A DNA stretch of 64,000 bases from Lentisphaeria bacterium. Lineage in GTDB: Bacteria > Verrucomicrobiota > Lentisphaeria > JABSQK01 > JAWLHB01. This document shows positions 18,837 through 22,018 of the stretch, piece after piece. Each line of letters starts with the position of its first letter. Position 1 is the stretch's first letter. The stretch spans positions 1 to 64,000 of the forward strand of contig JAWLHB010000018.1 in NCBI GenBank assembly GCA_041690595.1, written 5' to 3'. Made by a program: the position numbers and the translations under genes. The notes beneath the pieces were generated by a model. It made no database searches. It worked only from the letters and a program-made list of their open reading frames with translations, and was not told where the DNA came from.

Positions 18837-20714
18837 ATGCGCCTCGACGACTACCCATTTCTCCTTTACTGGAAGCCACTGGCCCTCACCATCATCCTGC
18901 TGGTGGTATTCGGCCAGACAGTCTTTTTCAACTTCGTCAATTGGGACGATCCGCACTATCTGGTAAACAATCCCGCGATTCAGAACCTTTCGTGGGGCCA
19001 CGTGAAGCAGATCCTGACCCCGGGAGCCATCCCGGAAGAGCAGCTCTACATCCCGGTGACCTACCTGTCCCATCTGGCGGAGAGCGCCCTCTTCGGCTTT
19101 TCAGCTGGGGTAGTGCATGGCGTCAACCTGCTCCTTCACCTGCTCAACGTCCTGCTGCTGTACCAGCTCTTCAAGCGCTGGTCGAATGAAAGCTGGATCG
19201 CCTTTGCCGGTGCTGTCCTCTTTGCCGTGCATCCGCTGCAGGCGGAAGCCGTCGCCTGGGCGATGGGACGAAAGGAGCTGCTGTCGACAACCTTCGGCCT
19301 CATCTGCTTGCTCGGTTGGCAAGGCTTTCTGGAAGAGCACCGGAGGAACAGCCTGCTTGTCGCTATCTCGGCGGCGGCCCTGGCCATGCTGTGCAAACCG
19401 ACGATGATCATGCTGCCGGTGCTGCTCCTGCTGGTGGCGTGGGCCGTGCACGAGGAACGCCTGTCGCGCCGGGAGCTGCTTGCCGCCCTGCCTCTGATCG
19501 TGCTGGCGGCAACTGTGCTTGGCCTCAATCGCCTGATCGCGGCGCCAACCATGGCGAGCGAAGCCTCGACCCCCCTGGCGCTGATCCAGGCGGCCTACCT
19601 TCCGGCACTTTTCAATGGCTGGCTGGAGCGGCTGCTGCTGCTGGCGCCGCCCATGCCCCACTATCGGCTGGGAGCCCTGTCACCGTCGAGCATTTCCTGG
19701 CTGCATGCGCTCCCGCTGCTGATCCTGCTCGGTGGGCTTGCCATTGCGTTTCGGCATGGACAGCGACGCCTCTGGTTCGGCCTCTGCTTTGCCATTCTGG
19801 CCGCCTTGCCGGCTATCGGTATTCTCGTGCTGCGCAACCGTTATTTCGTGACGGCGGACCGCTACGGGTACTTTCCGTTGATCGGCGTCTGGTTCACGGC
19901 AGCCATCGTACTGGGACAGTTGGCGCCGACATGGCGCCGCGCCTATACCGGACTCCTCGTCATCTTCACCTGCCTGGCGGTCGTGCAAACCTATCGGGTG
20001 ACCGGCATCTGGCGGGAGAGCCGGAGTCTGTGGGAGTACGTCCTGCGCCGGGAACCGGAGCATCCGATCGCTCACAATGCCTTGGCCAACGCACTCGCCG
20101 AAGCCGGCGAGCACAACCTGGCGCGCCATCACTATCGGACGGCAGCCCTGCTACAGACGGATTACCCGCAGCCACGGTACAATCTCGCCATGATACTCAT
20201 CGACAGCGATCCGCGGCAGGCGCGGCGACTGCTGCGCCACGCCCTGATAGCGGATCCCGCGTTTGCCACTGCCTGGCACCAACTGGGTACACTGCACCGC
20301 AATGCTGGCGAACCGAAGGCCGCCCTGAACGCCTACAGTCGTGCTCTGATCGCCAATCCCGGCCTGGCCACCGCCTGGTTCGACCGGGCGCAGCTTCATC
20401 AGGACTCCGGCGATCTGGAGGCAGCATGCCGGGATTTGGCCCAAGCCCTACGCCGTCGACCGGACTGGTCGCGAGCCCATTTCAAGCTCGCGGTCTGCCA
20501 CCACCGCCTCAGCCAGCCGGCCGATGCGATGCTCCACTATCAGCGTGCGATTGCACTCGACCCAACCTACCACGAAGCATGGTACAACATGGCCTTGCTG
20601 CTTCAGGGGCTCGGCCAGACGCAGCCCGCCCGCCATGCACTTGGTCAAGCTCTTGCCCTGAGCCCGGAAGATCCCGACTACCTGGCTGCATGGCGCGACA
20701 TGACGGAAAGATAA
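18837..20714 (+). CDS. TMTC-like GT-C glycosyltransferase with C-terminal TPR repeats
   Basis: NWDD loop, HPLQAEAVAW, KP and ADRYGY motifs; about 11 TM helices followed by multiple TPRs. Confidence 0.85.
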   Translation: MRLDDYPFLLYWKPLALTIILLVVFGQTVFFNFVNWDDPHYLVNNPAIQNLSWGHVKQILTPGAIPEEQLYIPVTYLSHLAESALFGFSAGVVHGVNLLLHLLNVLLLYQLFKRWSNESWIAFAGAVLFAVHPLQAEAVAWAMGRKELLSTTFGLICLLGWQGFLEEHRRNSLLVAISAAALAMLCKPTMIMLPVLLLLVAWAVHEERLSRRELLAALPLIVLAATVLGLNRLIAAPTMASEASTPLALIQAAYLPALFNGWLERLLLLAPPMPHYRLGALSPSSISWLHALPLLILLGGLAIAFRHGQRRLWFGLCFAILAALPAIGILVLRNRYFVTADRYGYFPLIGVWFTAAIVLGQLAPTWRRAYTGLLVIFTCLAVVQTYRVTGIWRESRSLWEYVLRREPEHPIAHNALANALAEAGEHNLARHHYRTAALLQTDYPQPRYNLAMILIDSDPRQARRLLRHALIADPAFATAWHQLGTLHRNAGEPKAALNAYSRALIANPGLATAWFDRAQLHQDSGDLEAACRDLAQALRRRPDWSRAHFKLAVCHHRLSQPADAMLHYQRAIALDPTYHEAWYNMALLLQGLGQTQPARHALGQALALSPEDPDYLAAWRDMTER

Positions 20715-20742
20715 GCGCTGGCACCCCCGGCCAATTCACCGC

Positions 20743-20882
20743 AAAAAAGCGGTGGCGTCAAACACGGCTGATGGGCGGGGAGCCAAAGCATCCGGTCTGA
20801 CGCCACCTAGGGCAGGTCTTTCAACCTTCATTGTTCGGGAAGGCGACCCTCTCTTTCAGGTCAGATCAGAGTCGCTATCCGC
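20743..20882 (-). ncRNA. Candidate sigma54-dependent small RNA (~140 nt, three stem-loops, U6 tail)
   Basis: Upstream -24/-12 promoter. Stems GCGACUCU/AGGGUCGC, AGGUU-GAAA-GACCU and GGUGGCGUCAGAC/GUUUGACGCCACC followed by GCUUUUUU. Both neighbouring genes are on the + strand. Confidence 0.6.
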
Positions 20883-20892
20883 TGTCCTTATC

Positions 20893-20908
20893 AGCAACTG
20901 CAATGCCA
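20893..20908 (-). promoter_or_regulatory. Sigma54 (-24/-12) promoter
   Basis: TGGCATTGCAGTTGCT versus consensus TGGCACG-N4-TTGCW; exact GG-N10-GC spacing. Confidence 0.7.
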
Positions 20909-21118
20909 ATCTCTTTTTGAGCCTGAACACGCCAAACGGTGGCACCTCCATGTTGCACTCCCTTTACGCCCCTGTTCAAACTCCTGACGGCCGCCTGCTT
21001 CAGACCCCGCTCCGGCATCCCCGATTGATTGAGCCGCGAATGAAAGTACCTTATGCGCAGACCCGGACAGCTTTGTATACAGATCGACACACTGCCCGAA
21101 TCCCAACCGCGGAAGCCC

Positions 21119-22018
21119 ATGCCGAGCCTGCTTGACAATGTCCTCGTCATCTACAAGAAGAGCCTCTACCAGATCTATTTTCAGGAGCGCTCGCAGCAGA
21201 TGGCATCCGGTAGCAATCGCTTCAGCGAAGCCGACATCCAGCGCTTCGCCGATGCTCACGATACCCACAACCGTACCCTCGAGACCGTTGACCGGGAGCT
21301 GACCTGCCTGGGGATTCGCCATCGCCTTGTCTACCGCGCCCGCATCATGAACTACCAGCACTATTCGCTGGTCATCTCCGTCGGCGGCGACGGGACCTTC
21401 ATCGAAGCGGCCCGCCGGATCACCGATCAGGCCATTCTGGGCGTCAATTCCGACCCCCAGCGAAGCGTCGGCGCCTTCTGTGTCACCAACAGCACCTGCT
21501 TCGGCGACTTCATGCGAAACCTGACTAACGGATCCCCGCGGATACGACTCTTCAACCGGATGGATATTCGCCTCAACGACGAACTTTATGCATTTCGGGC
21601 GGTCAACGAAGTATTGGTAGCGCACCAGTCACCAGCGGCGATGAGCCGCTATTCTCTACATATCGACGGTCAGGAGGAAGTGCAGCGCAGCTCGGGCATC
21701 TGGATCAGCACCGCGGCAGGCTCGAGCGGCGCGATACACTCAGCCGGCGGGCAGACAATGCCGCTGGGCAGCAAGCGCCTTCAGTACCGTCCACGCGAGT
21801 TGTTCAACGCTCCGAACAAACCTACGTACAAGCTTCGAGGCGGGATGCTCCGCCTCAACCAGGAGATCGAACTGCAATCCATGATGCGCGAGGGTATCGC
21901 CTATATCGACGGCCCCCACCTGCGCCTCCCCGTTCCGCATGGCAATCGGTTGCGACTTAGCAACTCCTCCATGCCCCTGCGTGTCCTTATCGACAAGCGC
22001 GCCACCGACAAGCGCTGA
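21119..22018 (+). CDS. NAD(+)/NADH kinase
   Basis: VGGDGT, GVN, NE and STAAGS..AIHSAGG motifs. Confidence 0.9.
   Translation: MPSLLDNVLVIYKKSLYQIYFQERSQQMASGSNRFSEADIQRFADAHDTHNRTLETVDRELTCLGIRHRLVYRARIMNYQHYSLVISVGGDGTFIEAARRITDQAILGVNSDPQRSVGAFCVTNSTCFGDFMRNLTNGSPRIRLFNRMDIRLNDELYAFRAVNEVLVAHQSPAAMSRYSLHIDGQEEVQRSSGIWISTAAGSSGAIHSAGGQTMPLGSKRLQYRPRELFNAPNKPTYKLRGGMLRLNQEIELQSMMREGIAYIDGPHLRLPVPHGNRLRLSNSSMPLRVLIDKRATDKR

Follow-up and report, generated by a model that had tools for sequence, protein, structure and literature searches.

The DNA analysed here, called the window, is a stretch of 64,000 nucleotides (contig JAWLHB010000018.1) from the genome of a Lentisphaeria bacterium of 8.1 Mb, 61.5% GC and 97% completeness, on which our own gene calling gave 5768 genes; the comparison set included 0 genomes of the same family. 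The element under study lies in an intergenic gap of 404 nt. On one side ends a plus-strand gene (18837..20714) that encodes, according to Pfam, a TMTC-like membrane protein with PMT_2 and TPR parts, one of five paralogs, which is convergent with the element. On the other side a divergent gene for an NAD kinase-like protein begins (21119..22018, plus strand), followed by a MoxR AAA ATPase gene, all family scores being under the curated cut-offs. A weak sigma70-like hexamer pair, recognized by eye at 21025-21052 of the window (plus strand) and absent from the promoter scanner output, may serve the NAD kinase gene as a promoter, which would stand back-to-back with the sigma54 box described below.

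On the minus strand the gap contains a -24/-12 sigma54 promoter box (20893..20908), three stems, a GAAA loop and a GC followed by a U tract, all of which were confirmed at the coordinates assigned to them in the preliminary description. The usual sigma54 spacing would place the transcription start at 20882/20883 and predicts an RNA of about 140 nt (20743..20882). In 5' to 3' order this RNA would comprise stem 1 (20843..20875), a linker (20828..20842), stem 2 with its GAAA tetraloop (20814..20827), and stem 3 (20751..20807), a terminator-like helix of 13 bp with an inner extension and a UCCCC apical loop (20777..20781); GC separates stem 3 from the U6 tract (20743..20748). The U6 tract starts 2 nt from stem 3 and doubles as the loop of a 6-bp palindrome in the sequence (20737-20754). 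A 31-codon ORF (20736..20831, minus strand) overlaps the unit and a 14-bp motif (20918..20931, plus strand) adjoins the -24 box. The hairpin unit is single-copy in the genome, as opposed to a REP/MITE-type multicopy repeat, which had been named as a possible objection. DNA contigs of near strains cover parts of the unit, with 4 differences each.

Two RpoN proteins are encoded in the genome, together with 23 matches to the activator domain, 22 of them at E<1e-40. The strict box TGGCAY-N5-TTGCT occurs once in the window, where 0.15 occurrences are expected; 13 of 100 window shuffles reach one, so the box alone is not significant. The same count speaks for an alternative in which no gene is transcribed here, stem 3 protecting the TMTC mRNA at its 3' end or acting as a terminator in reverse orientation, with the box and stems 1 and 2 as coincidences or relics. 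When restricted to gene-leading sites, TGGCAY-N5-TTGC is found 14 times vs 1-7 times at six wrong spacers, and among all intergenic sites 21 times vs 3-20, one wrong spacer having given 20. Some of the gene-leading sites precede genes which, from their translations, we take to be glnA, csbD and the flagellar genes flgD and fliW. On a scoring matrix trained on 15 gene-leading sites, from which the box of this unit was left out, the box reaches 18.6 bits and rank 19 genome-wide; the seven non-training sites down to that rank are three intergenic and four coding ones, and the four coding sites outscore it. The sigma54 promoter proposed earlier is upheld by the match of the box to the host's own sites and by the presence of two RpoN and about 22 activators, and the box is probably a real promoter. 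Other sigma54 sites were noted in the genome. The second rpoN (L063:39-1746, contig C14) has its own sigma54 box and lies, with csrA immediately after it, at the end of a cluster of flagellar type; at C58:25000-25230 (plus strand) a sigma54 site precedes a structured leader of 214 nt (z -3.9) and then a membrane protein gene; boxes at C5:150428 (minus) and C15:47225 (plus) lead short frames absent from our gene calls.

The minus strand of the unit folds at -61.1 kcal/mol (z -4.93), a value matched by none of 200 shuffles, compared with z -2.16 on the plus strand, where 6 of 200 shuffles were as good; a structured minus-strand unit, as previously put forward, is thus borne out. In the 5' 75 nt, which exclude stem 3, z is -3.41 on the minus vs -0.32 on the plus strand, and since this half is significant on the minus strand alone, strand-specific structure extends beyond the terminator, which argues against an untranscribed coincidence. 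The G-U pairs had been thought to favor the minus strand in all three stems: the bias is strong in stem 1 (-14.0 kcal/mol vs -7.6 on the plus strand) and weaker in stem 2 (-4.8 vs -2.5), whereas stem 3 is nearly strand-neutral (-33.3 vs -32.0). This near equality of stem 3 counts in favor of the coincidence, as does the finding that in 6 of the 140 tandem genes carrying a long hairpin at the 3' end the only U tract is antisense, but among those six hairpins a box occurs only at this one. Among 51 gene-less terminator-like hairpins stem 3 has the highest stability, and no other of them is preceded by a strict box at the correct spacing, six wrong spacings having given 1 in total. The linker, formerly described as single-stranded, is open in its 3' part, whereas the prediction pairs its CUUCCC with the 5' GGA, and opening CCUUCC costs 7.9 kcal/mol. 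The fold that contains stem 3 lies 16.5 kcal/mol below any fold without it; as the terminated fold is far more stable than its alternatives, the default product would be a discrete RNA.

A second gene-less sigma54 unit, the twin, was found at C17:92145-92308 on the minus strand. Its length is similar (137 nt vs 140 nt), its box at C17:92308 ranks third on the matrix, and its fold (z -6.5) closes with a long hairpin, after which comes a short U run; no Rfam family was matched by it. When 58 intergenic sigma54 sites were ranked by fold z, the twin and this unit came first and second (-6.9 and -5.6), and only at these two is a same-strand gene absent behind the site. Box, structure and terminator thus coincide twice, at the top of the ranking, against the reading of the locus as untranscribed; that reading can also draw on conservation not having been found in order, class and GTDB-wide searches, and it is considered unlikely, although with a weight that has to be reckoned with.

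The twin points into the 3' end of a TMTC-like gene (758 aa), its U run overlapping the stop codon, and among the findings this position behind a paralog is the most surprising one. Only two gene-less 6/6 boxes lie 90-320 nt from a convergent gene in the genome, and both face TMTC-like paralogs, while two 5/6 boxes facing convergent genes lead ATG-started frames. Free space lies behind 1038 gene ends, and of the roughly 538,000 pairs that these can form 645 (0.12%) are paralogous; the chance of both units pointing into TMTC-like (PMT+TPR) 3' ends is about one to three per thousand. The membrane parts of the two proteins share only 29% identity, each being at least as near to that of other paralogs, and there is little similarity between their TPR ends. 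The two RNAs were rejected as homologs, their likeness not being significant either globally (p 0.07-0.09) or when R1, the single-sequence model of this unit, was run on the twin (E 0.27); such models, including R2 for the twin, are insensitive. The 14-bp motif adjoins both -24 boxes in opposite orientations, its only exact matches in the genome being those two, and a 12/14 copy precedes the sigma54 promoter at C21:138806 at equal distance. This motif, which is degenerate and was derived post hoc from two sites (best local alignment p 0.29), is a possible site for a DNA-bending protein or a regulator. In the best explanation the twin would be a second RNA of like design belonging to the same sigma54 regulon.

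The shared position is also the ground for an alternative by which the units act in cis: sigma54 transcription at the 3' end of the TMTC-like gene would pass through a structured attenuator or leader, and read-through or 3' overlap would silence the gene by antisense pairing or transcriptional interference. Besides the two boxes and the rarity of paralogous pairs, it is favored by the nascent folds of both RNAs, in which upstream sequence transiently holds the 5' arm of the terminator, and by the precedent of the downstream antisense S-box promoter of ubiG (PMC2566862). Against it, the terminated fold is more stable than any alternative by 16.5 (unit) and 16.9 (twin) kcal/mol, and shuffles form an antiterminator as good in 10% and 26% of cases, so that the pairing does not exceed them; of the features of an attenuator or riboswitch, the unit displays transient upstream pairing only. 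Moreover, two of the five TMTC-like paralogs have such a unit and three do not. Among relatives, the strict convergent box was found at none of about 72 TMTC-like genes (0/29 and 0/44 in two sets, with three loose matches in each), a few of these genes being split so that the first stop is possibly not the true end; the set of 44 has one gene in common with that of 29 and was obtained after dropping 8 loci with the stop outside, 3 duplicates and 3 loci of the own genome. The TMTC link is therefore genome-specific on present data. On balance the cis-acting reading is improbable. Still less probable, at the level of a long shot, is its more specific form, in which both units would be a recurring module behind TMTC-like protein glycosyltransferase genes, the leader being a ligand- or protein-gated attenuator that releases antisense transcription; if true, this would be an undescribed riboswitch-like RNA tying sigma54 signalling to envelope protein glycosylation.

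Homologs had been expected upstream of NAD kinase genes in relatives, and there none was found: among 13 loci of the order, 11 of them with upstream DNA, the strict box occurs at 0 and loose matches at 2, and what lies upstream of the closest NAD kinase (63%, L024) is a methyltransferase-like gene. The positional link is better to the TMTC-like gene, as at the twin, which keeps the cis-acting reading alive. BLAST of 431 nt in 60 relatives yielded one weak match only, outside the RNA, and a relaxed BLAST in the order gave a best match (E 5e-4) within an AraC ORF and nothing at 32 further loci. R1 matched once in 14 order genomes, inside a kinase ORF, and had no match in 150 class genomes or on 83 TMTC loci; R2 had none in 14 order genomes. 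A pattern of box plus GNRA loop was present in 26 of 350 class genomes, with 0 of the 29 resulting loci scored by R1, and a pattern of box plus linker in GTDB genomes produced 42 loci, about the chance number, with a best R1 E of 0.36. Phages gave one 29-nt match and plasmids none; in viral contigs the counts were 2, both chance-like, and 0. The closest relatives belong to other families, at about 50% protein identity, so that missing homologs neither support nor refute the RNA. In an order relative (G006:C362), the stretch L107:1299-1455 carries a sigma54 box, three hairpins, a C-rich stretch and a long U run, followed by a HEAT-repeat gene; its sequence is unrelated to the unit and Rfam gives only a sub-threshold suhB match.

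The transcript might also be the mRNA of a small peptide, considering that the lineage has sigma54-led peptides of about 55 aa and that in the twin a GTG-started frame of 28 codons scores like coding sequence (+9.9). The 31-codon ORF of this unit, however, has a dicodon score of -13.9, so low in 0.04% of 4562 gene windows, had no usable atlas match, and reaches its stop past the U6 terminator, all of which agrees with the doubts already expressed about it; moreover, neither frame fits the profile of the small-peptide family (-1.3 and -1.6 bits), and both were rejected as members. The ORF is probably untranslated, and a peptide mRNA is highly unlikely. Two tandem peptides of about 50 aa were observed at L179:439-600 and C17:89431-89562 (both minus strand), with the motif LxDLLP..VxGG..FG and no Pfam family; homologs were found in 9 of 14 genomes of the order, where they often lie between a sigma54 box and prepilin-like gene clusters.

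From these sequence-based results, the unit is likely to be a genuine sigma54-driven small RNA, which belongs to a known kind but has not been described before. The best reading of its function, still tentative, is that of a lineage-specific, Hfq-independent sRNA acting in trans on Shine-Dalgarno (SD) sequences. Transcription would start near 20882 on the minus strand, driven by one of the two sigma54 factors together with an enhancer-binding activator, and the RNA is predicted to fold into a protective 5' stem, the GNRA hairpin and the long 3' hairpin, which would end transcription at U6. The C-rich loop that is left exposed, the UCCCC capping stem 3 or CCUCC in the twin, would then seed pairing in trans with GGAG/GGGAG ribosome-binding sites, where translation would be blocked. 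Hfq was not found in the genome (best E 0.097, under the cut-off), nor were ProQ, RapZ and Ro60; given the absence of detectable Hfq, ProQ and RapZ, action in the manner of C-rich Hfq-independent sRNAs is the most likely one. The tip loop is the most open C-rich, anti-SD-like site, its UCCC opening at 0.0 kcal/mol (0.9 for the loop of the twin), compared with 4.9 kcal/mol for the UCCC copy in the linker. The linker itself, earlier suggested as the anti-SD seed, is partly occluded by pairing with the 5' GGA, and its predicted targets are no better than those of shuffled seeds. Of 5749 genes, 34% have GGAG in the SD zone; by our own estimate chance alone gives about 0.7 UCCC 4-mers per 140 nt. 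In the genome-wide target prediction, where neither seed did better than shuffles, the first percentile was -15.2 vs -13.0 to -18.1 for shuffles, and -22.4 vs -20.5 to -23.8. Pairing with glmS or TMTC mRNAs was rejected, that with the glmS leader not going beyond shuffles. It counts against the trans model that it does not explain why both units lie behind TMTC-like genes.

Titration of a protein, most plausibly CsrA, was weighed as well, since csrA lies directly behind the second rpoN with its own sigma54 box. GGA occurs only twice in the unit, in paired positions that cost about 5 kcal/mol to open, and once in the twin; ANGGA and AAnAAnAA motifs are absent, and Hfq, ProQ, RapZ and Ro60, as other candidate proteins, were not found in the genome. 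The absence of open GGA or CA repeats argues against a sponge, and such a role is quite unlikely. A CsrB/RsmZ sponge was discarded as several exposed ANGGA motifs are missing, CrcZ as AAnAAnAA repeats are missing and Hfq was not found, and Y RNA as its Ro60/TROVE partner was not found; a scan of intergenic DNA for CsrB-like RNAs returned only simple repeats among its top 16.

The comparison with Rfam 15 that had been proposed (cmscan at the gathering score) matched no family in the unit (best 17.8 bits, E 7.6-9) or the whole window. 6S RNA was dismissed, with no RF00013 match and a fold that is not a rod; no 6S RNA over the Rfam cut-off was found in the own genome or in 14-15 order genomes, and it may be divergent in the lineage. 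SRP RNA, RNase P RNA, tmRNA and tRNA were set aside, the genome's own having been found elsewhere. A solitary CRISPR repeat was rejected, 285 of 1631 comparable sites aligning to the host repeat as well or better; the CRISPR array itself, of about 100 repeats, lies at C22:21200-28500 and is presumably type I-C-like.

If real, the units would represent sigma54-controlled sRNAs in a little-studied PVC-type lineage lacking detectable Hfq, ProQ and RapZ, and would extend chaperone-free C-rich-loop regulation to sigma54 regulons. In the literature covered, no described sRNA was found for the lineage, nor a sigma54 sRNA in PVC bacteria or one linked to TMTC. Their value is limited by the single uncultured genome, in which the sRNA is a prediction from sequence with no homologs found. 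The placement of both units behind TMTC-like genes is unexplained and can be tested.

Among known systems, Qrr and CrcZ are sigma54-driven stand-alone RNAs, and LhrC is a further C-rich Hfq-independent sRNA besides RsaE and RNAIII. With Qrr, CrcZ and CsrB/RsmZ the unit shares the design of a stand-alone RNA, with the first two the sigma54 box, and CsrA is present in the host; it differs from them in that there is no Hfq over the cut-off, no CA repeats, no repeated open GGA and no Rfam match. GlmY and GlmZ likewise form a pair of sRNAs with three stems each, the promoter of GlmY being of the sigma54 type (PMC4152352, PMC6075780), but here RapZ was not found, there is no glmS-leader pairing beyond shuffles and the two RNAs are not significantly similar. 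The ubiG antisense S-box of Clostridium acetobutylicum (PMC2566862) resembles the unit in its convergent promoter, structured leader and terminator downstream of a gene, whereas the unit has a sigma54 promoter and no known aptamer or clear antiterminator. As to RsaE and RNAIII, they are under sigmaA/B, in another phylum, and the proposed action is by analogy with them; a 5' hairpin, a terminator and an unpaired UCCC, here in the freely open tip loop, are common features, and such loops act without Hfq (PMC2790875), in line with a host lacking detectable Hfq. A host-type -24/-12 box, RpoN and activators, as expected of a sigma54-dependent sRNA, are all present, and while the unit lacks the Rfam match and the adjoining activator gene of Pxr of Myxococcus xanthus, it has in common with Pxr (PMC5684412) the architecture of a stand-alone sRNA with a predicted sigma54 promoter and three stem-loops.
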